This document shows positions 5,955 to 45,454 of a DNA stretch of 64,000 nucleotides, in pieces. The translations under genes and the position numbers were made by a program. This DNA comes from Methanobacteriota archaeon (GTDB taxonomy: Archaea; Thermoplasmatota; E2; DHVEG-1), in assembly GCA_963769885.1 (NCBI GenBank), contig CAVYNH010000004.1, positions 288,001-352,000 of the forward strand, given 5' to 3'. The notes beneath the pieces were generated by a model. It was not told the origin of the DNA, made no database searches, and worked only from the letters and a program-made list of their open reading frames with translations. The number at the start of each line of letters is the position of its first letter. The first letter of the stretch is position 1.

Positions 5955-6134
5955 CTTCCCTCAAATAATAAAGGATGAACACATTAATTAATCTATTCAA
6001 ACGAACAAATTTCTTCTTATAAAAAGGCGAAGAGCTAAACTCTCATCCCTCAATATACTCCAACCTAGTTCCTCGCCCTCCGCTGTCACCCAAACGTTTA
6101 TGAGCCTCTTATCAATGCTCCCTGGGTAAGAGTA

Positions 6135-7685: not shown

Positions 7686-7713
7686 AAACAAAAACCAAAC
7701 AAAACGGACACCC

Positions 7714-9486
7714 ATGCACCTCACCATCAAAGCCCGCGACGGACCCGCCCGCACCGGCATCCTCACCATCCACGACACCACCATCCACACCCCCTCCATC
7801 CTCACCCTCACCCCCACCACCATCCCCAACACCATCCACCTCACCACCATCCCCACCACCCTCTTCTCCCCACACCCCAAACCCACCAGCTACCTCCTCT
7901 ACCCCAACAACCTCCCACTCCCCTTCCAAAAAGAGACACTCACCTCCTCACAAAAAACCCCAGACCTCCACCTCATCCCCCCGACCCCAGAACTCCTCAC
8001 TAACCTCACCACCACCCCCGGCACCTTCTACACCGTCACCAACGCCGCCCAACTCTACCACCACCAAACCGCCTTCGTCGCCTTCATCACCACCCTCCGC
8101 CAGACCCTCGCCCCCGAAAGCCTCCTCTACCTCCCCGCCATCGCCACCCCCACCACCCTCGCCATCCTCACCTACCTCGGCGCCGACCTCACCGACACCA
8201 CCCAAGCCCACCTCGCCGCCCACCACCACACCCTCCTCTTCCCCACCGGCCCCATCCCCCAAACCGACCTCACCGAACTCCCCTGCCACTGCCCAACCTG
8301 CACCACTATCAAAGACCCAACAACCATGACCTGCTCCGACATCCTCACCCACAACATCCACGCCCTCACCACCGAAGCCCAACACATCCGCACCGCCATC
8401 ACCCGCGGCACCCTCCGCGAACACGTCGAAACCCGCGTCCGCGCCGACCCACACGCCACCGCACTCCTCCGACTCCTCGACCACAACCACCCCGCCTACC
8501 TCGAAGAAGCCACCCCCCTCACCAGACGCTACCCCCTCCTCGCCACCACCCGCGAAGCCCTCACCCGCCCCGAAGTCCGCCGCTACCAACACCGCGTCCT
8601 CTACCGCTACCACAAACCACCAACCGCCCACATCCTCCTCCTGCTCCCCTGTGCCGCCCACAAACCATACTCCGAATCCAAAAGCCACACCCTCTTCCGA
8701 GCCGCCCTGCTCGCCAGCCCCAACCCCTGGGCAGTGCACGAACTCATCGTCACCTCCCCCCTCGGCCTCGTCCCTCGCGAACTCGAGATCGTCCCCCCAG
8801 CCTCCTGCTACGACATCGCGGTCACCGGCCACTGGGACGACGACGAGAAGACCATGATCACCCGACTCCTCCGCCACTACCTCGCAGCCAACCGATACGA
8901 CCAGATCATCAGCCACCTCGGCCCCCACCTCCATGCCATTGTCGAAGCCTTGATCCCTGGCGCGACGGTGACCTGCGTAGACATCCCAACCTCGGACGCA
9001 TCACTCGACCGTCTCAAACAGGAGCTCGGTGTCCGCACCGCTCAGTACCCCCGGGTCAGCCCAGCCCAGCATGCCTGCGAAGAAGTCAGCGCCGTCGCCG
9101 CCTACCAGTTCGGCCCAGCCATCGCCGCCGCCCTCATGAAAGACAGCGCCGTCCGCGGTCGCTACCCGTACCGCAAGATCCTCAAGAGCAACAAGCAGCT
9201 CGGCATGATCACCGACCGAGGCCTCATCTCCTTGACGTTTGGCGGTGCGCAGGCCTGCGCCGCCGAATCTGGGTACTCCGTCACCATCGCGGACGACTTC
9301 CGCCTAATCGGCTCCGTGTTCGCTCCCGGCATCATCCAGGCCGACCCAGGAATCCGCATCGGGGACGACGTCTGGGTGAGACAAAACAACATGGTCCGCG
9401 GCGTCGGCGTCGCGACCATGAGCGGACCGGAGATGAACCGCGCACGGCACGGGGAGGCGATACGAATCCGCCATCGCCATACCTGA
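7714..9486 (+). CDS. arcS: Archaeosine synthase subunit alpha (TGT-like plus PUA domain)
   Basis: ARDGPARTG start, CxCxxC Zn site, LLPCAAHKPYSESKSH, TSPLGLVPRELE, C-terminal PUA domain. Confidence 0.9.
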   Translation: MHLTIKARDGPARTGILTIHDTTIHTPSILTLTPTTIPNTIHLTTIPTTLFSPHPKPTSYLLYPNNLPLPFQKETLTSSQKTPDLHLIPPTPELLTNLTTTPGTFYTVTNAAQLYHHQTAFVAFITTLRQTLAPESLLYLPAIATPTTLAILTYLGADLTDTTQAHLAAHHHTLLFPTGPIPQTDLTELPCHCPTCTTIKDPTTMTCSDILTHNIHALTTEAQHIRTAITRGTLREHVETRVRADPHATALLRLLDHNHPAYLEEATPLTRRYPLLATTREALTRPEVRRYQHRVLYRYHKPPTAHILLLLPCAAHKPYSESKSHTLFRAALLASPNPWAVHELIVTSPLGLVPRELEIVPPASCYDIAVTGHWDDDEKTMITRLLRHYLAANRYDQIISHLGPHLHAIVEALIPGATVTCVDIPTSDASLDRLKQELGVRTAQYPRVSPAQHACEEVSAVAAYQFGPAIAAALMKDSAVRGRYPYRKILKSNKQLGMITDRGLISLTFGGAQACAAESGYSVTIADDFRLIGSVFAPGIIQADPGIRIGDDVWVRQNNMVRGVGVATMSGPEMNRARHGEAIRIRHRHT

Positions 9487-9508
9487 GCTAAAAAAAGAAA
9501 ACGGTCCC

Positions 9509-9850
9509 TTATTTTCTTGCAGCGACCGTAATCGTGCCCATGTACCCGCACTGGGGGCAGGTATGAGTAAACGAGGTCGGCTTCTTGGTGCGGACCGAGA
9601 GGGAGAACGTCTTCTTACAGGAAGGGCAACGATACAGATGCACGGCAGAGGCAGGGGCTTTGTCAGTCGGAGACTTCGCAGTCTTCCGCACCCCAAGCAG
9701 CATCCATACAAGCGGGATGAGCAGGACAACGTCGACGAAGAGAACCTGCAGCATCCACCCGTTCTCATTGACCATATCATACATTGCGACGATCAGCGTC
9801 ACCAGACCCAGGGGGATGACGCAAACCGCGATGAGGACGCGTCGGTTCAT
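9509..9850 (-). CDS. Small membrane protein with C-terminal zinc ribbon
   Basis: Two hydrophobic segments, then CPSC...CPQCG; GGAGG SD upstream. Confidence 0.75.
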   Translation of the reverse strand: MNRRVLIAVCVIPLGLVTLIVAMYDMVNENGWMLQVLFVDVVLLIPLVWMLLGVRKTAKSPTDKAPASAVHLYRCPSCKKTFSLSVRTKKPTSFTHTCPQCGYMGTITVAARK

Positions 9851-9854
9851 GAGG

Positions 9855-12834
9855 CTACCTCCTCCGAATAACGAGAAGGCCGAGGAGGAAGATGACGACG
9901 AAGAACACCACCGCGAGGGTGAGGTAAAGAGCATGGTCCTGAAAGACCTCGATCAGGGATGCCTCTTGGCGGCCATGCAGAGGGTCTGTATGGGCAGTGT
10001 ACTCTTGTAGGTTACTGGCACCGTCCCCGTCCGAGTCGATGAGGGCATCCGAGGCGTTGTACGGGTCAAGCCCGTACAACAGTTCCCAGTCATCCGGCAG
10101 CCCGTCGTTGTCGGTGTCGTTGAGATCGAGGGTGATCCAGAACGTCATCTCGGGGCTGCGGGCGGTGTTGTTATAGTAGTCGACGCTGGAGACGCGATAG
10201 ATGTACTTACCGAGGTCGTGGTAGATCTGGGTGATTTGATAGTATCCGGTCGTGTTCTTTTGGAGGATCACGTCAGAGTAGGTGCCATCAGGCGTGGTGA
10301 TGCGGGCTTGGACGCTGCGGATGCCGTAGTTGTCGTGGGTCCCGCAGGTGATCTTCACGGGAAGGCCGGGGAGCTGGACCTGGGGCTCGACTTCGATGAG
10401 GTCCAGGGACGGCGGGGTCTTGTCGATGACGACGGTGAAGTTCCCCGTAGCAGTGGCCTTGTTTTTAAAGTAGGCGGCGTCGGTCGCGGTGATCGTAAAG
10501 CTGTATCTCCCGAGGGCCCAGGTATCCAGCAGGGTGTAGCGATACCTGGTATCGTTGAGGAGGGTCATGTTGGCGGCGAGTTGGGTGTTCTTGGGGGTTT
10601 TGATGGTGATGCTGACGAGGCTGATACCGGAGGCGTCGGTCGCCCTGACGGTGAAGATGGCGGGGAATCCTTTTTCGATGATGCCGGGCTCTTCGAGGAT
10701 GCTGATGACGGGCTTGTTCTTTTCCGCCGGGATGACCACCAGGGGTCGGTCGAGGCGTTTGAGGCGGTTGTTCGTGTCGTTGTAGTCTGGGGTGGAGGCG
10801 TTGGGGTGAATCTCGACGCCGACGTAACCATTCCCCCCTGTATTTCTCGTCGCCGTACTTGACGGGGGACCAGGTGAGGTCGACGATCATGGTCTCTCCC
10901 ACGTCAAGGGAGATGGTCGTGGAGTTCACTTCTCCTGTGTAGAGCACGTTGGGGGGGTCGTGCTGTTCGACGAAGAGGGCGATGGTGTAGTTGACGCCGG
11001 TCTTATGTCCGTTGTTGCGGATGGTGGTGGCGATGACTCCGGCGCCGTACTCGTTGAGGGCTGTGCTCGGCAGGCTGATGTCGACAACGGTGAAGTCGGC
11101 AGCGCCTTGGACGGTGACGGTGGCGGTCTTGTTGTTGTTGGCGGTGTTCGGCTCGGTGTAGTCCGAGCAGCTGATGGTGACGGTGATCTTGTAGGTGCCT
11201 TGGGTGGGGTGCCAGTAGCAGACGAAGCTGGTGTTCTTGTCTTTTGGTAGCACGTTTCCGGTGGAGTTCAAGAGGTAGGTGGAGTTGCATTTGAAGCTGA
11301 TGCGGACGTCGGGGACGGTGGCGTTGGTGGCAGTGGCGTAGGCGGTGATGGTGACGTTGCCTTCCGTGGGGGTGTTAGGGAATCGCAGGTATGTGAGGGC
11401 GATGTCCGGGATGGTGATGTTGAGGGAGTAGTTCTGCCGATTGATGTACCCGGCGTTGTCTATGGCGGTGGCGCGAATGCTCCAGTTGCCTCTGGGGAGG
11501 TTGAGGCGCTGGGTCCATTTGAGGGTATCGAGGGTGGAGAACGTCAGGGTCCGGTTGAAATGGCCGTTGAGGAGGAGGTCGGCGGTGACGGATTTGGCTT
11601 TCGCGACGGTTTTCAGGGTGATGGTGAAGTCTGTATTCGGCAGATAGAAGGTTTGGATGACGGTGGAGGGCTCCAGCCACCAGCCTTCGGGGTTGCTGGT
11701 GGAGTCGATGACGGCGGTGCCGGGGTTTTGGTGGATGGGTTTGGAGAGGTTGGTCCGGGTGCCGTTGTTGTCGTAGGTGTCGAAGTAGACGAGGTAGAAA
11801 CCGCGGCCGGTGACAGCCCAAGTGAGGTCTCCTTTCGCGTTGGTCTGAGAAGCGTAGTCGTTGGCTCTAGTGAACTTATAGGGGATGACGTTGTTTTTTC
11901 CGGCAGCGTATTTGACGACGGTAATAGTGGCGTCTTCAAGGGGCTTACTAGTGAGGCCGAGGGTGTGGAGTGCGGCGGTGAAGTTCACGGTCTTGGTGAG
12001 GTTTCCGGTGCCGGTGGCATTGTAGTAGTAGCGGTAGTGCCAGCTGGTGTTCCACCAGGGGATTTTAACCGTGGTGATGGTGGCGACGAGGGTGGCGGTG
12101 TTGTTGGTTTCGTTGAGTTCGTAGACGGTATGGTCTGGGTCGAGGACGATGGTGACGGTGGTAAGACCGGCGGTGGTCGGGGTCCAGCTGAAGGTGAGGG
12201 CCCAGAGTTGGCCGTGTTGGAGGCCAATGATGGCGGTGGTGTTGATGGTTTTGTCATTGATGCGGCAGTCGGCGTGGATGGTTTCGGTGGTGTTGGCGCC
12301 GGTGTTGGTCGCAGTGGCTTGCAGGGTGATGAGGGAGCCGACGGTGGTGGTGCCGGTGAGGGTGATTGGGGTGGTGAAGGCGAGGTCTGGGGGCGGGGGG
12401 TGGATGGTGATGGTGGCGGTGCGGTAGTTGTTGTGGGGGTTGGGGTCGTTGAGGCCGGTGCGGGCGGTGAAGTTGAGGGTGCGGTTTTGTGGTAGGTTGG
12501 CGGGATGGTGGCTAGTGAATTTGGCGATCCAGTAGAGGGTGAAGGTATGGTGGGTGGTGGTGAGGGTGATGGTGGTGTTGATGCTGGTGGTGTAGGTGCC
12601 GTCGACGAGGAGGCTGACGTTGATCCAGGTATTGTTATTGAGGTTGGGGGGGGTGGTGATGTTGACGGGGAGGGTGAGGTTGGTGCCGACGATGGTATCG
12701 GTGGGGATGGTGAGGGGGTCGATGGAGAGGTCGACTTGGGTGGAGGCGGTGGCGGGGAGGGCGAGGGATGGTAGAATGATGAGGACGGCCAGTACGGTGA
12801 GTATCGTGTGCGTGGTAGAACCAGGGTTTTGCAT
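9855..12834 (-). pseudogene. Large CARDB/Ig-domain surface protein with Ca-binding DxDxDG repeats and a C-terminal TM anchor, +1 frameshift at ~10826
   Basis: The 789-aa ORF ends YRGEW and continues YVGVEIHPNAS in the frame of the 9855-10739 ORF; ELNETNN CARDB motif; DTDNDGLPDDWE; TM helix followed by RRR. Confidence 0.8.
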
Positions 12835-12917
12835 TGTTCTCCTCCCGATGTGCTGGCGTCATATTTGGTTCGTAGTATTTCTATTTTTTGATAAAAATAT
12901 CGGCTTTCGGGTATTTA

Positions 12918-14162
12918 TTATTCGGTCAGTCGGTAGGGTCTGAGGTCGACGTAGTCGCCGAGGCGGACCCAGAGGGCGAGGTGGGTGAGGCCGGTGAGGG
13001 TGATGTTGGCGCTGAGGGAGGCGTAGAGGCGGGTGGGGGGGAGGAGCGGGCGGCCGTGAGGCAGGAGGATTTTCCAGGAGAAGAAGATGGTGCCGGTGAA
13101 TTTGGTGGTGGCGTGGGGGGTGAGTTCGTGTTCGGTGAGGTTCCCGTAGGCGAGGTAGTTAAGGCCAGTGGAGAGGACTGAGTAGTAGTCGATGCGCAGA
13201 TCCTTGACGTAGAGGGGGAGGCTGGAGGGGTTGTAGACGGTGAGGTTGGTTTCTCCTTGAATGCCGCCTTTGACGCGGTGGGTGTCGACGAAGAGGCGTA
13301 GTTCGATGGGGGCGGTGTGGGGAAGGAGGGTTCCGAGGTCGGGGAATGCGAGGGTGACGGCGGTGCTGAGGGGGAGGGTTTTAGTGGTGCCGGCGATGAT
13401 GGCGCTGGCTTTGCTAGTGAAGGTGATGGTAAGGGTTTGGGCGTTGAGGATGCTGAAGGCGAGGAAGCCGTTGCTGTAAAGGGTGGCATTGGCCTTGGCA
13501 GGGATGGTGCCGTTGGTGATGGGGAGGAGGGTGACGGTTTCGTTGGTTTCGTTGCCGATGCTGAGGGTGGTGTCGTGGAGGCCGAGGGCGAAGGCGTTGG
13601 GGTTGGTGATGGTGATGGTGGTGTTGAGGGCGATGCTGGTGTTGGTGATGGTGCCGAGGGTGGGGGCGATGTGGATGGTGGGGAGGTGGATCTGGTCGAT
13701 GAGGTCGTCGATGCTGGCTTGGATGGTGAGGCTGAGGGGGAGGGTTTTGTGGATGATGGCGAAGGTGATGTCGATGTCGCCGGTGAGGGCGGCGGTGAGG
13801 AGGCCGGTGAGGTTGCCGGAGAGCGTGATGGCTTTGGTGTCGGTGAGGGTGGTGGTGGTGTGGGCGGGGATGGTGCCGTTGGCGAGGGGGATGCTGGCGA
13901 GGTCGGTGGTCGTGGTGCGGAGGGTGAGGGTGAGGTGTTGGAGGCTGAGGTCAAAGTCGTTGGTGTTGTGGATGGTGAGGGTGTAAGCGAGGGTTGCCTG
14001 GTCGGTGCCGAGTGTGAAGGTGGTGACGGCGATCTCGATTTTCGGGAGGCTGGCGGAGTTGACAGTGAAGATAAGGAAGGCGCTGACGGCGATGTTGAAG
14101 ATGATGAGGATGAGGAGGACTAGGAGGGCGAAGAGGGTTCGTCGTCTGGGAAGGGGTCGCAT
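12918..14162 (-). CDS. Membrane-anchored protein with three LEA_2/WHy-like domains
   Basis: N-terminal TM helix; repeated IHNTNDF / ITNPNAF / VYNPSSL motifs. Confidence 0.75.
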   Translation of the reverse strand: MRPLPRRRTLFALLVLLILIIFNIAVSAFLIFTVNSASLPKIEIAVTTFTLGTDQATLAYTLTIHNTNDFDLSLQHLTLTLRTTTTDLASIPLANGTIPAHTTTTLTDTKAITLSGNLTGLLTAALTGDIDITFAIIHKTLPLSLTIQASIDDLIDQIHLPTIHIAPTLGTITNTSIALNTTITITNPNAFALGLHDTTLSIGNETNETVTLLPITNGTIPAKANATLYSNGFLAFSILNAQTLTITFTSKASAIIAGTTKTLPLSTAVTLAFPDLGTLLPHTAPIELRLFVDTHRVKGGIQGETNLTVYNPSSLPLYVKDLRIDYYSVLSTGLNYLAYGNLTEHELTPHATTKFTGTIFFSWKILLPHGRPLLPPTRLYASLSANITLTGLTHLALWVRLGDYVDLRPYRLTE

Positions 14163-21635: not shown

Positions 21636-21962
21636 CTAACATCCGCCCTGCACATATCTCGCATGATGCTCCCACGCCTCCTGCGCCCGCTGCAGCTCCC
21701 GGCCCAGATACAGATAATGCGTCGCCAACAAGGGCGGCACCCGCTTCTCGATCGTATCGCATAACGCGTCCGCCCGCGTCCCCGTAAACACCATCTCCAA
21801 CCGACCAGACACGATCCGCCCCCCACGAACCACGTTCGAATAGAACTCCACCCGAATCCCACCCTTCGCTGCCTCAATCACGAAGAACCCCGCGGGATCT
21901 AATATTACATCCTTCTGCGCGGTCTTGCGCGCCGCATACGACGGCACCTCCCTATCCACCAT
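21636..21962 (-). CDS. DUF4346 domain protein
   Basis: LDPAGFFVI ... HYLYLGRELQRA signature. Confidence 0.85.
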   Translation of the reverse strand: MVDREVPSYAARKTAQKDVILDPAGFFVIEAAKGGIRVEFYSNVVRGGRIVSGRLEMVFTGTRADALCDTIEKRVPPLLATHYLYLGRELQRAQEAWEHHARYVQGGC

Positions 21963-22851
21963 ACACCCTCACCTTCGCCTCCTGCAAATTCCTCAATTTA
22001 TGAAACGCAACCTCACGCGGCAACATCCGCAGCCCGCAATCCGGCGCCACCTGCACCACCCGACACCCGAACACCTCCTCCGCCCGCTCCAAATGACTGG
22101 CAATCTCCTCAACAGCCTCCACCCGCGCATCATCCGCCCGCACCGCCCCCACACACATCCCCTTCTCCGACGGATACTCCCGAAACGTCGCAAACAACTT
22201 TGGTGATGCCGCAAACTCATGCGACAACACATCCACCGGCATCCCCACCAACCGCCCCACAATCCCAGAGACGTTCCCGCACACATGCAGCCGCATCGGA
22301 CACGCCACCCCCCGACTCACGATCCCGATCGCCTCCTCCGCATACTCCGGCAGCTCATTGCTGAACCACGGCTCATCCACACTCACCATATCCACAAACC
22401 ACGACAACGCCGCCGCCTCCTGCCGCAACGCCTCCGCAAACGCCAGACAGCACGCCCGCTCATCACGATAAAACGAATCCACACACGACTTCATCAACGT
22501 AAACGGCCCCGTCACCACCCCCAGCACCTTCACCGACGGCCCCACCACTCGACGCACCACCTCCGCGTCCCGCACCGTGATTCCCCCACAATACTCAATC
22601 GGACCCACCACCTCGGTCCGCGCCCGCACCCGACAGCCGCCCAGCCGCCGCGCGAACAACTGCACGAACGGATCCCGCGTCTGCCCATCAGACACCAGCT
22701 CGATGCCCGCCTCCACCATATCACCCACCGCGTCCACGATATACGGGTTCCACGACACCTCCTCCCCAGCGAAGTACTGCGCCATCAACTCCATCGGCGG
22801 CACCACGACCGGATACGACCCGACGACGCTGCTCAATACGCACCGACTCAT
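21952..22851 (-). CDS. Core (single-barrel) MetE-family methionine synthase, probable methylcobamide:homocysteine methyltransferase
   Basis: VVGSYP, SDGQTR, TGPFTL, DEP motifs; Zn ligands HxC, E and PDCGLR; 299 aa with no N-terminal barrel. Confidence 0.88.
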   Translation of the reverse strand: MSRCVLSSVVGSYPVVVPPMELMAQYFAGEEVSWNPYIVDAVGDMVEAGIELVSDGQTRDPFVQLFARRLGGCRVRARTEVVGPIEYCGGITVRDAEVVRRVVGPSVKVLGVVTGPFTLMKSCVDSFYRDERACCLAFAEALRQEAAALSWFVDMVSVDEPWFSNELPEYAEEAIGIVSRGVACPMRLHVCGNVSGIVGRLVGMPVDVLSHEFAASPKLFATFREYPSEKGMCVGAVRADDARVEAVEEIASHLERAEEVFGCRVVQVAPDCGLRMLPREVAFHKLRNLQEAKVRVYGG

Positions 22852-23756
22852 GGGGACAGCACCCTCCGCGGATGCCGCACCGCCGGGCAGACCCCGAAGT
22901 ACGCCTCTGTATACTCGGACACGACCATGTCGAACCAGGCCATCAACGGCACCACCACGGGAGCATGGACGATCGGGCCGAAGACCGCGAAATCACCGCC
23001 GAACAAGGCGACCCCCGCGTTCGACGCCGCATCCACCACGTCCTTCACATCCCCATACCGATGTAGCCATTTCGACTTCTCCACGACGTTATGGATCGCG
23101 CAGCCTGCAGGCAGCCCGTACTCCTCCTTGATGACCGGCAGCGACGCCAGCGCGGCCCCGCTGTTCTGCCCCGGCGCAAGCGCCGCGGTGTCCACCAGAA
23201 TCTTCTTCAGCCCCAGCGAGGATGCGACCGCCAGCAGCCCGCTTTCGATGAGGTGGGCCCCGTTTTCGAGGACTTCAACCCGCCCATCAGGGGATGAATC
23301 CTTGGGGTTGAACGCGACGATGATCGCCATCGCCGGCGGATGCGCCTTCAACGCCTCGCGTTCCGGTGCGGTTATCCCGATGTGCAGCGAATTATAGATT
23401 GTCCGGTCCAACAACCCGTGATCGCGTAGTGCCTCCAACGCCTTGACCTTGATCGCCGGTTCGATGACATCCACAGAGAACGGATGCCCGTCCGGGAGAT
23501 GCTGTTCCAGGAAATCAAGGATCGGCTCGAGGTACTCCTCCTTGCGGATGAAGACATCCGGGATTGTCGGCATCCCGGTCTCCTCGCCTGCCCGCAGCAT
23601 CGCCGCAAGCTGCGGAGCCGCGGCCGAGAAATGAGGCGCCCCTTTGAAGAATAGACCGCCGAACAACACCGTGGGATGCTCCCCCGGCTGTCCTCCAAAA
23701 TAAATCCCGCCGATCTCCATGACCTGCTGAGCCTTCGTAAACGAATACACCCTCAC
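22848..23756 (-). CDS. mtrH: Methyl-pterin:corrinoid methyltransferase MtrH/MtxH-like
   Basis: FGGQPGEHPTVLFG, IYNS, KEEYGLPAGCAIHN, GDFAVFGPI motifs. Confidence 0.9.
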   Translation of the reverse strand: MRVYSFTKAQQVMEIGGIYFGGQPGEHPTVLFGGLFFKGAPHFSAAAPQLAAMLRAGEETGMPTIPDVFIRKEEYLEPILDFLEQHLPDGHPFSVDVIEPAIKVKALEALRDHGLLDRTIYNSLHIGITAPEREALKAHPPAMAIIVAFNPKDSSPDGRVEVLENGAHLIESGLLAVASSLGLKKILVDTAALAPGQNSGAALASLPVIKEEYGLPAGCAIHNVVEKSKWLHRYGDVKDVVDAASNAGVALFGGDFAVFGPIVHAPVVVPLMAWFDMVVSEYTEAYFGVCPAVRHPRRVLSP

Positions 23757-24319
23757 TCACCTCTTTTCCTAACCCGACCCCGGGCGTCAATCATGATCCG
23801 CGCATGCAACGCCCGCGCGTCCCCAAGGCCGACTGTGGCCTCCGGCTTAATCCGAATCGCAATGTACGGTTCGCCGAACAAGGGCGGCGCCCGCTGATGA
23901 AGCTCTACGATCTGTTCGGACAACCGTCCCGGGTCCACGACCCCCACACAGTCCACGGTCTCTATCTGCTCGCGGAAACGGTTGATGGCCTCCTGTGTGA
24001 TGTTCTCGATGTACGGGATCGCCCCTGGCGCCTGGATGATCCGATGGTGTTCGTCGATGCCATGGCGGTGCAACGCCAGCAGCGACGCCCCGGACCGATG
24101 CCCGCGGATCTCCTCGCCGCAGACGACGACGTAGCGGATATGCGGGTTGGAGATTACGTTCGCCACGACCTTTTCGATGCCGATATTCTCCGTCTTCAGC
24201 CGCCCATAGATCGCCACGTCCGACGGAGGAGCGTACTCGATATTGAGCAGCACCACGGCGACGCAGCCGGTTGACGGGCCTGTCGTGAACTCACCGCCCC
24301 ATGGATAGTACTCGGTCAT
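23753..24319 (-). CDS. mtrA: Soluble corrinoid protein MtrA/MtxA-like
   Basis: KTENIGIEKVVANVISNPHIRY, EIRGH (Co-ligating His), GAIPYIEN; no C-terminal TM helix. Confidence 0.92.
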   Translation of the reverse strand: MTEYYPWGGEFTTGPSTGCVAVVLLNIEYAPPSDVAIYGRLKTENIGIEKVVANVISNPHIRYVVVCGEEIRGHRSGASLLALHRHGIDEHHRIIQAPGAIPYIENITQEAINRFREQIETVDCVGVVDPGRLSEQIVELHQRAPPLFGEPYIAIRIKPEATVGLGDARALHARIMIDARGRVRKRGE

Positions 24320-24353: not shown

Positions 24354-24986
24354 TTAATCTGCCGAAGCAAGACAGTAGCAGATGATTTCCTCGGCGGCGA
24401 ACCACTGCCGCCCCACGATAGTCCCAGTAAGTCGACCTTGGCGAAACAAGGTGGTGACTACCTCCGGCGGCGACCGGGAGCTGATGATGGTATAGGCCCG
24501 TGCATTGGCAGTAAAGAACCGCCCGACGTCCTTAAGGAAGCGGCCGGTGACCGCAAGGCCGCCAGCCCCACCGCTCGTTGCCAAATCCAGCCATTGATCG
24601 AGCAATTCACCAGCAGGGGTCGGCACGTACGGGGGGTTGAAGACAATGAGGTCGAACCGTTCTCTGGGTCGGACGACGGTGAAGAGGTCACCGAGGCGAA
24701 CGTCCATGATCCCAATGATGCGGGACTGGTTTCGTATAAGGTTCTGCCGGCAGTTCTCCACAGCGTGCGGGTTGCAGTCGCTGGCGACGACGCGGGCGCC
24801 GGCGTGGGCGCAGGCCAGCGCGATGATGCCGCAGCCGGTGCCCAGCTCGAGGACCGCCTCCTGCGGCCGCGGATGGATATTCTCGAGGAGGAGGAAGGTG
24901 TCTTCGGCAGGGTCGTAAACCCTAGGGTCGACGTCGATCATCAAACCCTGGTACGAGAAGGCCTTCGGGTGCGCTTGTTCACGCAT
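24354..24986 (-). CDS. HemK2/PrmC-type SAM-dependent protein methyltransferase
   Basis: VYDPAEDTFLL, LELGTGCG, FNPPY motifs. Confidence 0.88.
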   Translation of the reverse strand: MREQAHPKAFSYQGLMIDVDPRVYDPAEDTFLLLENIHPRPQEAVLELGTGCGIIALACAHAGARVVASDCNPHAVENCRQNLIRNQSRIIGIMDVRLGDLFTVVRPRERFDLIVFNPPYVPTPAGELLDQWLDLATSGGAGGLAVTGRFLKDVGRFFTANARAYTIISSRSPPEVVTTLFRQGRLTGTIVGRQWFAAEEIICYCLASAD

Positions 24987-27172: not shown

Positions 27173-27433
27173 GTGGTTGAACTCGGGCCTCTGTTAGCAA
27201 CGCTTGTCTTCATCATCATCGCCATCGAACTCGACGACCTCATCAAAGCCACCATCTCCCTCGGCATCAGCAGCGCGATCCTCGCCGCCGTCTTCTTCAC
27301 CCTCAACGCTCCCTACGCCGCCGTCTTCGAACTCAGCGTCGCCGCCGGCCTCATCACCGTCCTGCTCCTCGCCGCCATCGGCCTCATCGAACGCACCCAA
27401 GAACCCACCCCACCCCGGGAGGAGAACCCATGA
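27173..27433 (+). CDS. Hydrogenase membrane subunit, MbhD/NuoJ N-terminal-like (DUF4040)
   Basis: Three TM segments, APYAAVFELSVAAG; first gene of the operon. Confidence 0.75.
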   Translation: MVELGPLLATLVFIIIAIELDDLIKATISLGISSAILAAVFFTLNAPYAAVFELSVAAGLITVLLLAAIGLIERTQEPTPPREENP

Positions 27434-27669
27434 CGGCCATCAAACCCTACATCACCTACGGCTTCGCCATCGTCCTCTTCCTCTTCATCATCATCACCTT
27501 CAACCGCCTCATCAGCGAAGGCATCCCCACCCCCACCGTCACCACCGGCCCCTTCTCCCAAGCGCTCTGGACCCAATGGGGCCTCGCCGTCCTCATCCTC
27601 GCCTTCATCGCACTAGCGGGCGCCGCAAGCGTCCTCGTCCTCCTCGGAGGTGGCTGGCGATGGGACTAG
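27430..27669 (+). CDS. Small hydrogenase membrane subunit (NuoJ C-terminal-like)
   Basis: Two TM segments; ATGA overlap with the previous gene. Confidence 0.65.
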   Translation: MTAIKPYITYGFAIVLFLFIIITFNRLISEGIPTPTVTTGPFSQALWTQWGLAVLILAFIALAGAASVLVLLGGGWRWD

Positions 27670-27953
27670 TCCTCGCAAACTACCTCATGTTCGCAGTCAT
27701 GATCCTGTTCCTAGGGCTCTACTGCCTCCTCACCAAAAAAAGCCTCATTAAAAGCGCCATCGGCATCAGCATCATGGTCAAAGGCGCCTCGCTAAGCTTC
27801 CTCGCCGCCGGCGGCGCCACCGCTCAGGCCATCGTCGTCCTCATCATCGTCATCGACGCCATCGTCGCCGCCATCCTGCTCAGCCTCGCCGTCAACGTCT
27901 ACCGCCGCACCGGCAGCCTCAGCATCGAAGAACTCCGGAAGCTCTGGGGGTGA
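27660..27953 (+). CDS. NuoK/MbhG-like membrane subunit
   Basis: GLYCLLTKKSLIK ... AQAIVV ... YRRTGSL. Confidence 0.8.
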   Translation: MGLVLANYLMFAVMILFLGLYCLLTKKSLIKSAIGISIMVKGASLSFLAAGGATAQAIVVLIIVIDAIVAAILLSLAVNVYRRTGSLSIEELRKLWG

Positions 27954-27959
27954 ACCACG

Positions 27960-29777
27960 ATGACCACGAACGAACTCCTCGTCTGGCTCGCCCTCTTCCT
28001 CCCCTTCGCCGGCACCGCCCTCGTCCCCCTCATCGCCAGGGCCGGCGCCAAACCCAAGGTCTACCTCGCCGTCCTCCTAGGATTCCTCACCGCCGCCGCC
28101 ACCCTCATCATCCTTGACCTCGTCTGGCTCGGCGGCACCGGCCTTTCCTACAGCTTCGCCTGGGCACCCTCACTTGGCAGCACCACCTCCACCGGACTGA
28201 GCTTCACCGTCTACATCGACCCGCTCGCCGCCATGATGGCCGCCATCGCCGGCGGCATCGGCGCCCTCGTCCTCCTCTACTCCGTCAAATACATGGAGGG
28301 CAACGCCGGCCTCACCCGCTACTACGCCTTGGTCCTGCTCTTCATCGGCTCCATGATCGGCCTCGTCTTCGTCGACAACCTCCTCATCCTCTATTTCTTC
28401 TGGGAGGCCGTCGGCCTCTGCTCCTACGCCCTCATCGGCTTCTACACCACGGACCCCAAGGCGGCCCGCGCCGGCATCAAGGCCCTTGTCACCACCCGCG
28501 TCGGTGACATCGCCTTGCTCATTGGTATCTTCATCCTCGCCGCCGGCGCCACCAGCCTGGGCGCCGACTTCTTCAGCCAAGCCCTCAGCATCCGCTACCT
28601 CATCGCCCACGTCGCGAGCATCGCCCCGACCACCCTTGCGATTGCTGGTTTCTGTTTCATCGTCGGCGCCATGGGGAAGTCCGCGCAAGTCCCCTTGCAC
28701 GTCTGGTTGCCGGATGCGATGGAGGCGCCCACCACCATCAGCGCCTTGATCCACGCTGCGACCATGGTCAACGCTGGCGTCTACGTCATGGCCCGGTCCC
28801 TGCCTCTGTTCGCTTCGGTGCCGTATTGGACGGAGACGCTGATGTGGATCGGCATCATCACGGCGTTCCTGGCCGCGACCATGGCCCTCGTTGAGCCTGA
28901 CCTGAAGCGGGTCTTGGCGTACTCGACGGTCAGCCAGCTGGGCTTCATGATGTTCGGCATCGGGCTCGGCTTCCCTGGGTTTATCGCCGCGACTTTCTTC
29001 CTCCTCAGCCACGCCGTCTTCAAGGCGCTCCTGTTCCTCGGCGCCGGCTCCGTCATCCATAATCTCGGCACCCGGAACATGTACGAGATGGGCGGTCTGA
29101 AATCCTCGATGAAGCTTACCTATTACACCATGCTGATTGGTGGCCTCTCGCTTGCCGGACTGATCCCGTTGGCAGGGTTCTGGAGCAAGGATTACGTGCT
29201 CCTCGCCGCCTGGGAGACCGGCCAGTACATCCCCATGATTATCATGGTAATCACTGCGGTCTTGACTGCGGCGTACACGTTCCGGATGCTGAACCTCGTG
29301 TTCTGGGCGCAGCCGAGCCGCGAGCACCATGTGCATCCGACCCCATGGCAGATGAGCCTGCCGCTATTGGTTCTCGCGATTGGGACGACCATCGCGTGGC
29401 TCGCGATCGGGTTTCTCTCACGGTCGTATGTGGTGTTCGGGTTCGCAGAGGCCCATGGGTTCACGGTGCTGAGTTTCATTGTTGATACGGTCACGAAGCC
29501 AGCGATTATCTTCTCCCTGACTGCGTTGGTTGTCGGTCTTGGGCTCTTCTATGCCCGAAAGAGGTATGCGGCGAATTCGGTTGGCGCTGCGACCGTCACC
29601 GTGGCGCGGAAAGGCTATGGGTTTGATGCGTTCTACAGCGCGCTCGTCGCCGGGTTGGTACGGTTCGGCAACGTGTTCCGCCGCACCCAAACAGGTGACT
29701 TGAACTATAACCTCACCGGGTTTGTCATCGGGCTCGTAATTCTCATGGTCGTATTGTTCTTCTACGGAGGGGTCTAA
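27960..29777 (+). CDS. NuoL/MrpA-like antiporter subunit
   Basis: FWEAVG, KSAQVPLHVWLPDAMEAPT, AYSTVSQLG, HAVFKA motifs. Confidence 0.92.
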   Translation: MTTNELLVWLALFLPFAGTALVPLIARAGAKPKVYLAVLLGFLTAAATLIILDLVWLGGTGLSYSFAWAPSLGSTTSTGLSFTVYIDPLAAMMAAIAGGIGALVLLYSVKYMEGNAGLTRYYALVLLFIGSMIGLVFVDNLLILYFFWEAVGLCSYALIGFYTTDPKAARAGIKALVTTRVGDIALLIGIFILAAGATSLGADFFSQALSIRYLIAHVASIAPTTLAIAGFCFIVGAMGKSAQVPLHVWLPDAMEAPTTISALIHAATMVNAGVYVMARSLPLFASVPYWTETLMWIGIITAFLAATMALVEPDLKRVLAYSTVSQLGFMMFGIGLGFPGFIAATFFLLSHAVFKALLFLGAGSVIHNLGTRNMYEMGGLKSSMKLTYYTMLIGGLSLAGLIPLAGFWSKDYVLLAAWETGQYIPMIIMVITAVLTAAYTFRMLNLVFWAQPSREHHVHPTPWQMSLPLLVLAIGTTIAWLAIGFLSRSYVVFGFAEAHGFTVLSFIVDTVTKPAIIFSLTALVVGLGLFYARKRYAANSVGAATVTVARKGYGFDAFYSALVAGLVRFGNVFRRTQTGDLNYNLTGFVIGLVILMVVLFFYGGV

Positions 29778-35087: not shown

Positions 35088-36692
35088 ATGGATAAGGGGG
35101 ATAGCGTCTCTGCTTGGAGGATGATTCTGGTCTTCTTCGCGGTTTTTTTGATGCTGCCGCTTGGCTCGTTTGAGGCTCAGACGACTTCTGGTTCTGTAAA
35201 AAATGTGGCGAAAGAAGGTAGTGGTCTCTTGGATTCTGCATGGCCTATGTACTGCCATGACTCCAAACATACTGGGAGGAGCCCTCACGCACCAACCGGA
35301 AATTGGCGCATCGAAAAATGGCGATTCAAATCGACCTGGGACATATTATATTCCTCCCCCACCATCGATAACAATGGCACGATATATGTTGGATTATGTG
35401 GAGAACACTGCACAGTTGCTATTAACTCGGATGGATCTGAAAAATGGCGAGCTAGTACCGGGGGTGTCGAGCATTCTTCACCCGCTATTGGAATTGACGG
35501 GACAGTGTACATCGGCACAATAGCAGGAAGACTCTATGCGATTAACACGAACGGCACAATCAAATGGTGGATTTCGCTTGGAAGCGGATGGGCATCCTCC
35601 CCTGCTATCGACAACGACGGTATCATCTACTGCCCTGTCTCAGATAGTTATCGGCTCGCCGCAGTCTTCCCCAACGGAACCATTAAATGGTATTTCCACG
35701 CGCAATCCTATATCTTCACTGACCCAACTATAAGCGACGACGGCACCATTTACATCGGCTCCAATGACGGATATCTCTACGCCCTCAACCCGAATGGTAC
35801 TATGCGATGGAAATTCTATGGCGGCGGGACAAAAGGCGTCGCCTCTGCCTCCATCGCAGACGATGGAACAATCTATGTCGGGAGCACGGGAGGTTATCTC
35901 TATTCCCTTGCTCCTAATGGGACACTTAATTGGAAGGTCTACACCGGCTGGATTGGCGGATCGACCCCAGCAATCGCCGCAGACGGAACCATCTACGTCG
36001 GCGACCAGACACACTACCGACTCTATAGTATCGCTCCCAACGGGACCTTTAATTGGGCCTTCCAAACCGGCAACGACATCATGTCATCACCAGCCATTGA
36101 TGCCCATGGGACTATCTATTGTGCCTCATGCGACGGCAACCTCTATGCACTCAATAAGAATGGCAGCCTCCGCTGGGCATTCCATGCCCATGGCGATATC
36201 CAATCCTCACCTGTCATTGCCGAAGACGGCACTATCTACATCTCCGGATCTTTTGCAGGATCAGGATCTACACCTGACTATTCATACTTATATGCTTTAG
36301 GCACCATGAACGACACACAACCCACCCTGCCAACCATTACCGGCGATGCAACCGGTCACGTCCGACGGACCTACGACTACACCATCACCGCCACCGACCC
36401 GGACAACGACACCCTCCAATACTACGTCGACTGGGGCGACGGCACCTTCACGAACTGGACCACCCCGTCACCCTCCGGACACCCTATCACACAATCCCAC
36501 ACCTGGAAGAAACGAGGAACCTACACCGTCAAAGTCAAAGCCCGGGACCAATACCTCTGGGAAACCGACTGGGCCAACCTCACCGTCAAGATGCCCTACG
36601 AACCACCACGATTCCCCCTCATTCACTGGCTCCTCAATCGATTTCCGCACGCTTTCCCCATTCTGAGAATGCTTCTTACTGGAACCGAATAA
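35088..36692 (+). CDS. Secreted PQQ-like beta-propeller plus PKD domain protein
   Basis: WPMYCHD, repeated SSPAIxxDGTIY, YYVDWGDG. Confidence 0.9.
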   Translation: MDKGDSVSAWRMILVFFAVFLMLPLGSFEAQTTSGSVKNVAKEGSGLLDSAWPMYCHDSKHTGRSPHAPTGNWRIEKWRFKSTWDILYSSPTIDNNGTIYVGLCGEHCTVAINSDGSEKWRASTGGVEHSSPAIGIDGTVYIGTIAGRLYAINTNGTIKWWISLGSGWASSPAIDNDGIIYCPVSDSYRLAAVFPNGTIKWYFHAQSYIFTDPTISDDGTIYIGSNDGYLYALNPNGTMRWKFYGGGTKGVASASIADDGTIYVGSTGGYLYSLAPNGTLNWKVYTGWIGGSTPAIAADGTIYVGDQTHYRLYSIAPNGTFNWAFQTGNDIMSSPAIDAHGTIYCASCDGNLYALNKNGSLRWAFHAHGDIQSSPVIAEDGTIYISGSFAGSGSTPDYSYLYALGTMNDTQPTLPTITGDATGHVRRTYDYTITATDPDNDTLQYYVDWGDGTFTNWTTPSPSGHPITQSHTWKKRGTYTVKVKARDQYLWETDWANLTVKMPYEPPRFPLIHWLLNRFPHAFPILRMLLTGTE

Positions 36693-36853
36693 AAAAAATA
36701 CATCAAATGCCGATCAATCCGGTTTCTTGTGCAATAGCCTCCCCCCTGTTCAAAGACATCAGAATGCACTCTCTTCTCCCCTGTTTTCTAGAGCAAAAAT
36801 GAAAGGTTTAAGTAGCATCGTGATATAGGGTCCCTCCTGTAGGTAACAGGGGC

Positions 36854-37186
36854 GTGAGCCGAGACATGGAACGACGCGAGATTCTCGAAAACCTCAAGCG
36901 TACCGAGGCCGACGTCCGCGCGCGCATCGACGCTGCGCAGAAGAAGGCCGCCGAGATCAAAGACCACGCCATGAAACAAGCCAAGGCCAAGCAACGCGAA
37001 GCCGAACACCAAGCAGCCGAAGAGACAAACCGCCGGCTCACCGAGGCAAAAGCCGCCTTCGAAAAAGACCGCAAGCGCGCCCTCGCCGCCGCCACCACAG
37101 AGGCAGAGGCACTCAAGACCAAGGCGCAGCCACAGAAGGCCAAGGCGTTCTTCCTTTCCAAGTTCAACGAGTATCTCCATGCTTAG
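36854..37186 (+). CDS. atpH: A1AO ATP synthase subunit H (peripheral stalk)
   Basis: Ala/Lys/Glu-rich coiled coil immediately before atpI. Confidence 0.75.
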   Translation: MSRDMERREILENLKRTEADVRARIDAAQKKAAEIKDHAMKQAKAKQREAEHQAAEETNRRLTEAKAAFEKDRKRALAAATTEAEALKTKAQPQKAKAFFLSKFNEYLHA

Positions 37187-39209: not shown

Positions 39210-39224
39210 GGAGGTAAAACAAAA

Positions 39225-39446
39225 ATGGTAGCAGACACCGGACTCATCGCACTAGGCGCAGGCATCGCGATCGGCGCAGCAGCCATCGCCACCGCCATGG
39301 CCCAAAAAGCCATCGGAGCGGCCGCAGTCGGCGCTGCCGCAGAGAACGACAAAATGTTCGGACGAGGACTCGTCTACATGGTACTCCCCGAAACCATCGT
39401 CCTCTTCGGACTCGTCATCGCCTTCCTGCTGATCCAAAAAATCTAA
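39225..39446 (+). CDS. atpK: A1AO ATP synthase subunit K (c), single hairpin
   Basis: Two TM helices, LPET carboxylate motif. Confidence 0.95.
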   Translation: MVADTGLIALGAGIAIGAAAIATAMAQKAIGAAAVGAAAENDKMFGRGLVYMVLPETIVLFGLVIAFLLIQKI

Positions 39447-39513
39447 ACCACACAAGAAACCCGACAGGAACAACACACATGCGACCAACCATCCTATCGC
39501 ACGGCAGGTGCCC

Positions 39514-40065
39514 ATGGGCCTAGACACCGTCATCACCCGCGTCCAAAACGAAGGCGACCAGGCCATCAAAGCCATCCTCGCCGACGCAGAAAAACAGGCG
39601 AACGAAACGCTCGCCAAGGCAGCGCACGCAGCCGACGAGCTCCTCGCCGCCAGACGCGCCGAGACCGACAAAGCCATCAAAGCCCTCAGAATCCAAGAGG
39701 AAAACAGCCTAGAGATCGAGACTAAAAAGATCAGACTCAACGCCGAAAAGGAGATCCTTCAGGCCGCCTACCGCCACTGCCTCACCGCCCTCCAAGAACA
39801 AGCCACAGAAAAAATCCTCGCCGCCCTCCTCGCCACAGCCGCCAAAGAACTCCCGGACGCCGCCTACATCTCCAGCAACGCCCACGACGCCCCCACCGTG
39901 CGAAACCTCACGAAACTCACCTACGCCGGCACGATCCCCGCACTGGGCGGCATCGTCGTCGAAAACAAGGACCGCACCCTCAAACTCGACCTCCGCTACG
40001 AGACCATCGCCGCCAGCCTCTGGGACTGCCATCTCAAGGAAATCGCAGACCTCCTCCTGAGGTAA
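39514..40065 (+). CDS. atpE: A1AO ATP synthase subunit E
   Basis: MGLDTV start, LGGIVVE motif, operon position. Confidence 0.9.
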   Translation: MGLDTVITRVQNEGDQAIKAILADAEKQANETLAKAAHAADELLAARRAETDKAIKALRIQEENSLEIETKKIRLNAEKEILQAAYRHCLTALQEQATEKILAALLATAAKELPDAAYISSNAHDAPTVRNLTKLTYAGTIPALGGIVVENKDRTLKLDLRYETIAASLWDCHLKEIADLLLR

Positions 40066-40074
40066 CCATAGACT

Positions 40075-41166: not shown

Positions 41167-41167
41167 C

Positions 41168-41467: not shown

Positions 41468-41515
41468 AAAAAACACACAGACTCAAAAAAAAACAGAAAA
41501 AAAGGTGCACCCACA

Positions 41516-43255: not shown

Positions 43256-43257
43256 CC

Positions 43258-45269: not shown

Positions 45270-45276
45270 CGGGCGG

Positions 45277-45408: not shown

Positions 45409-45454
45409 AAAGGGAAGAAGAAAGAGTGAAGGGCCTGTGGCCCTATCTCGTTTT

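Follow-up and report, generated by a model that had tools for sequence, protein, structure and literature searches.

Four overlapping genes on the minus strand of a Thermoplasmatota genome, coding for an MtrA-like protein, an MtrH-like protein, a core MetE and a DUF4346 protein, most likely specify a soluble, multi-protein, cobamide-dependent methionine synthase. The genes occupy positions 24319-21636 of the window, i.e., the whole 64,000-nt stretch of DNA that was analysed (Table 1). The best reading of the operon, and one that we regard as probable on the strength of its sequences, is a relay that would carry a methyl group from CH3-H4folate through MtrH and MtrA-bound cobalt to core MetE and methionine. 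In such a relay, MTHFR would make 5-methyl-tetrahydrofolate from serine-derived methylene-folate, the MtrH-like barrel would pass the methyl group from 5-methyl-tetrahydrofolate to the Co(I) of the cobamide on the soluble MtrA-like protein, and a homocysteine thiolate activated by zinc on the MesA-like MetE would take it from methyl-Co(III)-MtrA, yielding methionine and Co(I). The relay is based on gene content, catalytic residues, operon conservation, gene fusions and patterns of co-occurrence and exclusion, and from these we infer which way the methyl group moves, which pterin carries it, its hand-over from MtrA to MetE and the role of DUF4346; operon membership does not by itself fix the direction of methyl flow.

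Table 1. Genes of the operon, in order of transcription, with window coordinates and Pfam matches.
Gene	Coordinates	Strand	Product	Pfam match
mtrA-like	23753..24319	-	188 aa	PF04208, 6e-48
mtrH-like	22848..23756	-	302 aa, GTG start	PF02007, 2e-50
core MetE (MesA-like)	21952..22851	-	299 aa	PF01717, 1e-26
DUF4346	21636..21962	-	108 aa	PF14251, 5.5e-18

The overlapping stop and start codons described in the earlier note are borne out by the ORF coordinates, which give overlaps of 4, 4 and 11 nt in gene order, the first of them between the mtrA stop and the mtrH-like start. The mtrH-like ORF has another GTG two codons inside its GTG start. Scans for sigma-70 promoters and intrinsic terminators use a bacterial consensus and were uninformative in this archaeal host.

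Judged on its sequence, the MtrA-like protein is a soluble corrinoid (cobamide) carrier devoid of a C-terminal membrane helix. Its match in the PDB is 5LAA (7e-39, GH motif aligned), the cobalamin-bound MtrA homologue of M. fervidus, a cytoplasmic protein in which His84 is the cobalt ligand and forms a hydrogen-bond chain with Glu54 and Ile111 (Wagner et al. 2016; PMC4915002). H74 (in the motif CGEEIRGH), E44 and I101 align with 5LAA gap-free, so that both the cobalt-ligating His and its hydrogen-bond partners are retained. The protein is 188 aa long, as against 238-240 aa in membrane MtrA, and has a charged tail and a maximum Kyte-Doolittle 19-residue mean of 1.34; it thus shows every feature of the cytoplasmic type (conserved His/Glu/Ile, fewer than 215 aa, no transmembrane helix), in agreement with the earlier description of an MtrA that keeps its cobalt ligand and lacks a membrane anchor. 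Among 113 distinct MtrA relatives, H74 and E44 are invariant, and none of the 113 sequences has a hydrophobic tail.

The MtrH-like protein is a full-length TIM-barrel domain that covers profile positions 1-292 of 299 in PF02007 (2e-50). NCBIfam models place it under the equivalog cut-offs of both mtrH (178 bits) and MtgA (129 bits), and its PDB matches are about equally good to M. mazei MtrH (9qtp, 138 bits) and to 6sj8 (126 bits), the latter being MtgA, an H4folate-specific methylcorrinoid:tetrahydrofolate methyltransferase. Enzymes of the MtrH family function with either H4MPT or H4folate. We propose that the protein is a methyl-pterin:corrinoid methyltransferase that would methylate MtrA-Co(I) from CH3-H4folate.

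The third protein consists of one barrel only, with PF01717 over residues 10-292 and no Meth_synt_1 domain in Pfam, and it carries the zinc ligands H189, C191, E212 and C272, which confirms the single zinc barrel noted earlier. Close and distant relatives (alignments A1 and A3) keep these ligands, as well as the contacts to homocysteine made by S12, Q57 and D159, with little or no variation. Its top NCBIfam model is NF002119, 'methionine synthase', with 209 bits against an equivalog cut-off of 258, and formally it is therefore not a MesA; several relatives do pass the cut-off, e.g., P0256, with 314 bits and 41% identity to core MetE. At the position of E. coli E484, the protein has a Gln, which is the signature of MesA and MesC (PMC7857596). 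All operon-linked MetE proteins fall into one clade (SH 96) within a superclade of the Gln type, and the catalytic halves of split MetE of the Thermococci type carry Glu and are placed outside that clade. MesA accepts methylcobalamin and is inactive with methyl-THF and methyl-H4MPT, and its Km of >20 mM, as given in the available text of PMC7857596 (citing Schroeder and Thauer 1999), implies a protein-bound corrinoid as donor. Core MetE is accordingly proposed, from these residues and relationships, as a methyl-corrinoid:homocysteine methyltransferase.

The host genome, which is 92% complete, encodes MtrA, MtrH, PF01717 and DUF4346 in one copy each, all of them in the operon. Searches of the genome gave no match to the MetH homocysteine domain (PF02574), to a pterin methyltransferase besides the MtrH-like one (Pterin_bind, PF00809) or, at E<=0.1, to the N-terminal half of MetE (Meth_synt_1, PF08267). 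Without these and without a second PF01717 protein, no other consumer of methyl-folate and no other methylase of homocysteine is detected, which leaves the operon MetE as the sole methionine-synthase candidate of the genome; at 92% completeness, these absences are no proof. SAM-dependent reactivation domains of the MetH kind, corrinoid reductive activators of the RACo/RamA type, which would be candidates for the repair of oxidised Co(II), and HcyBio, for de novo homocysteine synthesis, were likewise not detected in the genome. B12-binding domains are frequent, which points to cobamide being in use in the host. McrA was not found in the genome, nor was MtrE, and a full mtrA-H complex using these subunits was thus not seen; the earlier claim that mtrB-G are missing holds for MtrE, the membrane subunit that the search covered. 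MTHFR (encoded outside the operon), FolD, SHMT and SAH hydrolase are all present, and methenyl-H4MPT cyclohydrolase was found neither in this genome nor in 12 relatives. Given these results, and with MTHFR lying within the operon in other lineages, methyl-tetrahydrofolate is a likelier donor than methyl-H4MPT, and on this point the earlier note, which had named methyl-H4MPT, has to be amended.

The arrangement MtrA-MtrH-MetE-DUF4346 is kept wherever the contig permits in 80 Thermoplasmatota species genomes (MetE identity 43-78%), and 80 metagenome loci have the same gene pattern. MtrH lies upstream of MetE in 80/80 species loci, and DUF4346 lies downstream in 79, the remaining locus ending at the contig end; MtrA is present at 70 of the 72 species loci with room for it, once displaced by 2.4 kb, and is absent within 5-6 kb at the other two. 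Overlapping junctions join mtrH to metE in 115/134 cases and metE to the DUF4346 gene in 138/138. Both collection scans, of genomes and of metagenome contigs, retained only relatives from the Thermoplasmatota clade (43-88% identity), and the breadth of the operon beyond that clade therefore rests on a few loci (L095-L097, L100, L104-L106, G021 and G106). These include a single-strand MTHFR-MtrA-MtrH-MetE-DUF4346 arrangement (L106/G021) with a MetE identity of 33%. In a MAG labelled Nanoarchaeota, the order is MtrA-MtrH-MetE::DUF4346 and the MTHFR gene is convergent with it, and MTHFR stands directly 5' of mtrA in G230, G209 and G216.

Co-occurrence points the same way. MtrA was found in 15 of 121 Thermoplasmatota genomes, and all 15 encode core MetE and MTHFR, as against 25/106 and 29/106 of the rest, respectively; MtrA and MetE share one operon in 12 of the 15, and the 15 are free of split-MetE gene pairs and of ORFs the size of MetH. 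In a second phylum, MtrA occurs in two of 101 genomes, each of them also encoding a core MetE of the Gln type, and this brings the tally over the 222 genomes sampled to 17/17. Conversely, MtrA is absent from the sampled genomes with split-MetE gene pairs. The conserved cluster and the exclusion of metH anticipated by the earlier note were both observed, as was an exclusion of split MetE, and together with the sole-candidate status of core MetE they support its proposed route from methyl-pterin through MtrH and MtrA-Co to methionine. In family f17 (G132 and G143), the genes for MtrA and MetE lie apart and MtrA has no MtrH beside it; a 263-aa ORF that follows mtrA there was considered as the methyltransferase and rejected, being of low complexity with no Pfam match and no similarity to MtrH.

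DUF4346 is probably an accessory subunit of core MetE, as suggested by its fusion to the C-terminus of the latter in six 50%-identity clusters, which were recovered by a representative-sequence search with MetE as query. Its AF2 model (pLDDT 81.7) has a predicted fold of three strands and two helices, and H82, E89, A93, Y103 and Q105 are invariant family-wide. Comparisons with known structures were uninformative: Foldseek found nothing in the PDB at E<=0.001, the wide VIA-align search peaked at Z 5.8, with ribosomal proteins and EVH1/PH-like domains, a value inside the stated noise range, the A2 profile found nothing meaningful among PDB sequences, and the best score in an ESM Atlas feature search, 0.75, is under the useful range. 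A homologue search with the DUF4346 protein found no longer homologues. Prediction of a complex between core MetE (A1) and DUF4346 (A2), run without controls, returned ipSAE values of 0.01 and 0.00 and a mark of 0.32, figures that count neither for nor against an interaction. The Cys of the QGGC end, considered as a catalytic or redox site, was rejected, being invariant in the Thermoplasmatota clade and not in fused or distant members. DUF4346 most likely works on or with the MetE barrel by docking, capping or cofactor recognition.

DUF4346 might instead substitute for the folate-binding N-half of MetE, so that the two would form a cobamide-independent, methyl-pterin-dependent split MetE, with MtrA and MtrH serving another methyl transfer and being merely co-operonic. 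The current Pfam name of PF14251, 'PterinBD-DUF4346', the fusion of the domain to a DHPS-like pterin-binding enzyme in G021 as well as to MetE, and the conserved polar H82, E89, Y103 and Q105, which would fit a ligand site, all speak for this arrangement. We nevertheless consider it improbable, as MtrA and MtrH accompany MetE-DUF4346 at nearly every locus, fusion loci included, and as the core MetE of all 17 MtrA genomes has the Gln of MesA, an enzyme inactive with methyl-THF and methyl-H4MPT (PMC7857596), and not the Glu of the split and full MetE proteins sampled.

The proposed relay could also run backwards as a catabolic pathway, in which the MetE-like barrel would demethylate methionine, methylthiols or a sulfonium compound onto the MtrA cobamide and the MtrH-like enzyme would deliver the methyl group onward to tetrahydrofolate, where it could be oxidised or assimilated, much as with MtgA in glycine-betaine metabolism. 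MTHFR is reversible, the MtrH-like protein is about as close to MtgA (6sj8) as to MtrH, and MetE is distantly related to methylthiol methyltransferases of the MtaA/MtsA type, with weak URO-D and MtaA matches. The established thermodynamics of the MetH reaction, however, make it strongly uphill to move a methyl group from a thioether onto folate, and the zinc site and the three residues that bind the amino and carboxylate groups of homocysteine or methionine are invariant. Moreover, core MetE is the only methionine-synthase candidate in a genome whose SAH hydrolase makes homocysteine, and carriers of MtrA lack MetH and split MetE, as a replacement biosynthetic enzyme predicts. The chances of the reverse direction therefore appear slim.

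The coupling of MesA to MtrA is already partly in print. Price et al. (2021; PMC7857596), who found MesA only in methanogens, predicted MtrA to be the methyl donor of an enzyme of the MesA type, and Price and Arkin (2024; PMC11378808) remarked on the proximity of the two genes in 'a few genomes'. The core MetE described here resembles MesA (METE_METTM) in its single Meth_synt_2 barrel of ~300 aa, its zinc ligands and Ser/Gln/Asp contacts, its nearest curated model (NF002119) and its proposed donor, the corrinoid protein MtrA. It differs in scoring under the NF002119 cut-off and falling into a separate clade. In methanogens, the MtrA that would serve MesA is a subunit of the Na+-pumping MtrA-H complex of the membrane, with H4MPT as the pterin, whereas here neither Mcr nor MtrE was detected, MtrA is soluble, folate is the likely pterin, and a single dedicated operon unites MtrA, MtrH, MetE and DUF4346, joined in some lineages by MTHFR. 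Adjoining the operon are genes for a response regulator and for a methyltransferase of the HemK2 type. What donates the methyl group to MesA-type enzymes in vivo has only been predicted, in 1999 and 2021, and the operon supplies all candidate partners in one organism.

With MetH, the proposed system would share the passage of the methyl group from CH3-H4folate to Co(I) and from methyl-Co(III) to a zinc-activated homocysteine thiolate, as well as His-on cobamide binding. The modules are nevertheless non-homologous, the homocysteine barrel being of the MetE type and not PF02574, and the pterin barrel being MtrH and not PF00809; they are separate polypeptides, and no SAM-dependent reactivation domain was detected. 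By analogy, the system would be functionally a MetH split into separate non-homologous proteins, outside the MetH family. Split MetE (PF1268/PF1269 type, of thermophilic and halophilic archaea; PMC7857596) also has a stand-alone Meth_synt_2 subunit of ~300-340 aa beside a partner. That partner is a Meth_synt_1-like folate-binding half, for which no PF08267 match exists here; split forms show adjacent PF01717 pairs as against a single match here, and the sampled Thermococci-type halves, with Glu at the E484 position, belong to another clade. In 'Ca. Methanomethylicus mesodigestum', MtrH and a corrinoid protein likewise adjoin a metE homologue (CoP-MtrH-MetE), and a possible anabolic role was mentioned (Loh et al. 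2021, PMC7886697). The corrinoid protein of that locus is, however, of the B12-binding MtbC/MttC type and not MtrA, and the paper leaves DUF4346 unmentioned and proposes no pathway (PMC7886697).

Soluble MtrAH proteins without mtrB-G, partly from the same phylum, have been reported from Methanomassiliicoccales 'MALP', SG8-5 Thermoplasmata and Asgard archaea. In the available text of these papers, they are proposed to act as a methyl-H4F:CoM methyltransferase, with methyl-CoM-linked energy metabolism deduced from the genes (PMC6147122, PMC9723677), or MtrA and MtrH are said to have an unclear or unknown function where they occur in non-methanogens (PMC9635834; bioRxiv 10.1101/2020.03.09.984617); no link to MetE, DUF4346 or methionine was found in the same text of the four sources. 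That the present operon encodes a methyl-tetrahydrofolate:coenzyme M methyltransferase with the MetE-like barrel as thiol methylase, as this proposal for Methanomassiliicoccales and the methylation of CoM by MetE-fold relatives (MtaA) might suggest, is hardly credible, given that McrA was not found in the genome, that the residues binding the amino-acid part of homocysteine are conserved, that methionine synthases account for all of the top family models, those of the MtaA type scoring near noise, and that the operon occurs in many lineages that are not methanogens as far as sampled.

The methionine relay would give mtrA and mtrH a concrete, testable job outside methanogens, and it places DUF4346 in a defined context with a partner. 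Should mtrA and mtrH indeed serve methionine synthesis, the metabolisms reconstructed for uncultured archaea from these genes would have to be revised, and the two should not be taken by default as methanogenesis remnants. The ecology of sediment Thermoplasmatota would also come to include a need for B12 in making methionine. The suggestion that orphan mtrAH are biosynthetic in non-methanogenic archaea may hold in the two phylum samples that the survey covered. A further-reaching reading, which we think rather unlikely, makes the operon a complete, self-contained MetH alternative with DUF4346 as an essential, hitherto unrecognised subunit, which could either cap the MetE barrel or dock methyl-cobamide-MtrA onto it, or, no RACo-type activator having been found, keep or restore Co(I). 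On that reading, soluble MtrA/MtrH of non-methanogens would be primarily biosynthetic, and the methanogen Mtr pump may have arisen around such a soluble methyl relay, instead of the relay being left over from methanogenesis. Beside the operon, a SAM-dependent methyltransferase encoded at 24354-24986 was weighed as a possible reactivation partner in the manner of MetH; it was discarded as a HemK2/MTQ2 family protein, whose gene adjoins the operon in only about one third of the loci.

Comparative evidence is strong and supports the interpretation of the four-gene operon on the minus strand as a putative methionine synthase. Its ORFs, which code for an MtrA-like protein (P0001), an MtrH-like protein (P0002), a core MetE (P0003), i.e., a single zinc barrel, and a DUF4346 protein (P0004), are arranged head-to-tail with stop/start overlaps of 4, 4, and 11 nt, and their coordinates and Pfam assignments confirm the organization described in the earlier note. 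The upstream gene for a HemK2/MTQ2-family protein methyltransferase adjoins the operon in 13 of 52 genome loci and 15 of 37 metagenome loci (related loci with room for it), a proximity that probably reflects lineage synteny and not a functional link, and the downstream neighbor codes for a response regulator that carries PAS and DUF835 domains; no connection of either flank to the operon is evident. Mrp/complex-I-like membrane subunit genes start 3 kb away, and complex-I-like genes also lie beside the related operon of G021, a genome from another phylum, probably by coincidence.

Coordinates and assignments of the operon genes and of other genes of the window
Feature	Position	Strand	Remarks
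mtrA-like (P0001)	24319-23753	minus	188 aa; Pfam MtrA 6e-48
mtrH-like (P0002)	23756-22848	minus	302 aa, GTG start; Pfam MtrH 2e-50
core metE (P0003)	22851-21952	minus	299 aa; Pfam Meth_synt_2 1e-26
DUF4346 (P0004)	21962-21636	minus	108 aa; Pfam PF14251, current name "PterinBD-DUF4346," 5.5e-18
HemK2/MTQ2-family protein methyltransferase	24354-24986	minus	NCBIfam TIGR00537, 128 bits, above cut-off; end 34 nt upstream of mtrA
Mrp/complex-I-like membrane subunits	27204-29777	plus	Oxidored_q2, Proton_antipo_M
Aldehyde:ferredoxin oxidoreductase	55650-57410		in low-G+C stretch
GH57	58183-59370		in low-G+C stretch

The cobalt ligand of MtrA, His84 in the cobalamin-bound M. fervidus homologue 5LAA, belongs to a hydrogen-bond chain via Glu54 and Ile111 (PMC4915002). 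Their counterparts in P0001 are H74, E44, and I101, the first two being invariant among 113 distinct relatives. Because P0001 keeps the cobalt-ligand residues, is shorter than membrane MtrA (188 vs. 238–240 aa), and ends in a charged tail, it is predicted to be a soluble corrinoid protein, in agreement with the earlier description of an MtrA with the cobalt-ligating histidine and without a membrane anchor; a hydrophobic tail is found in none of its relatives. P0003 retains all four zinc ligands (H189, C191, E212, and C272) and all three homocysteine contacts (S12, Q57, and D159), and Gln at the position matching 57 is the MesA/MesC state, whereas Glu is that of MetE/MesD (PMC7857596). Among the NCBIfam models, NF002119 ("methionine synthase," 306 aa) scores best for P0003 and every distant relative tested; P0003 reaches 209 bits, below the cut-off of 258, which five relatives exceed. 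In a FastTree phylogeny of 132 MetE sequences, which depicts clustering rather than history since it is unrooted, built by a fast method, and devoid of named MesA/MesB/MesC references, all MtrAH- or DUF4346-associated enzymes form one 39-member clade (SH-like support 96) nested in a group of 89 that shares the signature S-Q-D-H-C-E-C, and the Thermococcus-type split-MetE catalytic halves, with Glu at the second signature position, belong to the other main group. P0002 resembles M. mazei MtrH (9qtp) and the tetrahydrofolate-specific methylcorrinoid methyltransferase 6sj8 to much the same degree; family membership does not settle its pterin.

The host assembly (2.09 Mb, 7 contigs, 92.4% complete) contains one match each for MtrA, MtrH, PF01717, and DUF4346, and none for McrA, MtrE, the MetH/BHMT homocysteine domain, Pterin_bind enzymes, Meth_synt_1, or a RACo-type corrinoid activator. 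With a single MtrA, a single MtrH, and no MtrE found in this genome, the full mtrA-H complex that the earlier note had considered as counter-evidence did not emerge. As MTHFR, FolD, SHMT, and SAH hydrolase are all encoded, along with eleven matches to the B12-binding domain, the host cell appears to produce both 5-methyl-tetrahydrofolate and homocysteine, and also to use cobamides; the operon genes are the only detectable consumers of the first two compounds. Methenyl-H4MPT cyclohydrolase had no match in the host genome or in 12 relatives.

The most economical reading of the operon is a three-step relay in which a methyl group would move from methyl-folate via MtrH and MtrA-Co to MetE. Serine would yield methylene-H4folate via SHMT, MTHFR would reduce it to methyl-H4folate, P0002 would methylate Co(I) on the soluble MtrA, and the MesA-like barrel of P0003 would pass the methyl group to zinc-bound homocysteine, the last two steps being proposed from the known activities of MtrH, MtgA, and MesA. 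MesA, the methanogen methylcobalamin:homocysteine methyltransferase of this type, uses methylcobalamin, methyl-THF and methyl-H4MPT being inactive, and its Km of more than 20 mM for free methylcobalamin implies a corrinoid-protein donor (PMC7857596). The chemistry would be that of MetH, but carried out by separate, non-homologous proteins. Comparative evidence favors the relay originally suggested, from methyl-pterin through MtrH and MtrA-Co to core MetE, with the amendment that the donor is likely folate rather than H4MPT.

Parts of this scheme have precedents. MtrA was predicted from distribution alone to be the methyl donor of MesA, which was considered to occur only in methanogens (Price et al., 2021; PMC7857596); nearly all occurrences of MesA homologues are accompanied by MtrA, and "in a few genomes" the mesA and mtrA genes lie near each other in the same orientation (Price and Arkin, 2024; PMC11378808). 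A CoP-MtrH-metE neighborhood with a possible anabolic role was also described (Loh et al., 2021; PMC7886697). For the soluble MtrAH of Thermoplasmata, Asgard, and others, published reports either propose a methyl-H4F:CoM methyltransferase or give the role as unknown or unclear (PMC6147122; 10.1101/2020.03.09.984617; PMC9723677; PMC9635834). No published description was found of the MtrA-MtrH-MetE-DUF4346 four-gene or MTHFR-containing five-gene operon, of its soluble MtrA in non-methanogens, of its MTHFR link, or of MetE::DUF4346 fusions, and a full-text literature search for "DUF4346" returned no paper.

Conservation of the cluster, a neighborhood check proposed at the outset, proved extensive. 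A scan of species-representative genomes with the MetE alignment as query recovered 80 loci (MetE identity 43–78%), all labeled Thermoplasmatota, Thermoplasmata, or "Methanobacteriota archaeon." According to tblastn, MtrH lies directly upstream of MetE in 80/80 and DUF4346 directly downstream in 79/80, the exception being a locus truncated where its contig ends. Of the 72 loci that extend far enough upstream, 70 have MtrA, in one case displaced by 2.4 kb, and in the other two none was found within 5–6 kb. The same order prevails in 80 metagenome loci; H-E junctions overlap in 115/134 cases and E-D junctions in 138/138, and the conservation of DUF4346 (43–75% identity) is similar to that of the operon enzymes.

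Of 121 evenly sampled Thermoplasmatota genomes, 15 encode MtrA and 106 do not; as kin are not independent, the following counts are descriptive, not statistical. A PF01717 gene occurs in 15/15 MtrA genomes vs. 25/106 others, and MTHFR in 15/15 vs. 29/106. MtrA and MetE share one operon in 11 of the 15, and G147, where nothing but a contig end interrupts it, would be a twelfth; the genes of G216 form two loci, MTHFR-MtrA-MtrH and MetE-DUF4346, and in G230, G209, and G216 MTHFR is immediately upstream of mtrA. MtrA and MetE are unlinked in two genomes of the family f17 (G132 and G143). There, mtrA at L223 (G132:C295, 1242-2664) and L225 (G143:C448) is followed by no mtrH, and by an overlapping 263-aa low-complexity ORF without Pfam match; the core MetE, at L224 and L226, is solitary and has 338 aa with an insertion. 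In line with the anti-correlation with metH considered in the earlier note, none of the 15 MtrA genomes has a split-MetE-type adjacent gene pair or a MetH-sized ORF (their two PF02574 matches are 308- and 410-aa ORFs); full-length MetH and split MetE are present in other Thermoplasmatota families. In the phylum of G021, MtrA occurs in 2/101 genomes, both with Gln-type core MetE, and 20-odd genomes have a Thermococcus-like split MetE, none of them with MtrA.

An exhaustive search of P0003 against 1.84 billion representatives extended the association further. P0254, from G021 and 33% identical to P0003, belongs to a same-strand MTHFR-MtrA-MtrH-MetE-DUF4346 operon, and two other distant representatives, on short contigs, have MtrH-MetE-DUF4346. 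Six clusters of 407–431 aa are MetE::DUF4346 fusions, including P0252, annotated "Nanoarchaeota archaeon," whose locus reads MtrA-MtrH-MetE::DUF4346 with a convergent MTHFR right behind. P0256 (41% identity to P0003, above the NF002119 equivalog cut-off) has no operon partners beside its gene, as expected of a methanogen-type MesA. The search also returned P0354 (745 aa), in which a core MetE domain is joined to a sugar/nucleoside kinase domain of the PfkB family.

AF2 models P0004 with confidence (pLDDT 81.7) as a small three-strand, two-helix fold, for which structure searches gave no convincing structural relative, and the protein aligns to the C-terminal part of NCBIfam NF002128, a model of 390-aa MtrA-like proteins. 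The family-wide invariant residues are A93 and the polar H82, E89, Y103, and Q105, whose polar character is more suggestive of a putative binding site than of a simple spacer. G021, besides its putative methionine operon, offers a second, unrelated context at L188 (G021:C15, 691-1737), where a 348-aa fusion of a DHPS-like Pterin_bind domain and a C-terminal DUF4346 precedes a flavoprotein gene; the common thread of these contexts is pterin-/folate-dependent one-carbon enzymes. As a candidate function, a docking or capping role as accessory subunit to the MetE barrel is tentatively favored over pterin binding.

Elsewhere in the window, G+C falls from about 58% to 35–39% over 56000-64000, and 59.4–64 kb is almost without ORFs of at least 150 aa; this low-G+C stretch may be foreign or mobile DNA. 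Sharp GC-skew flips between multi-kb blocks, from -0.49 to +0.58, mark 6000-14000 and 36000-48000.
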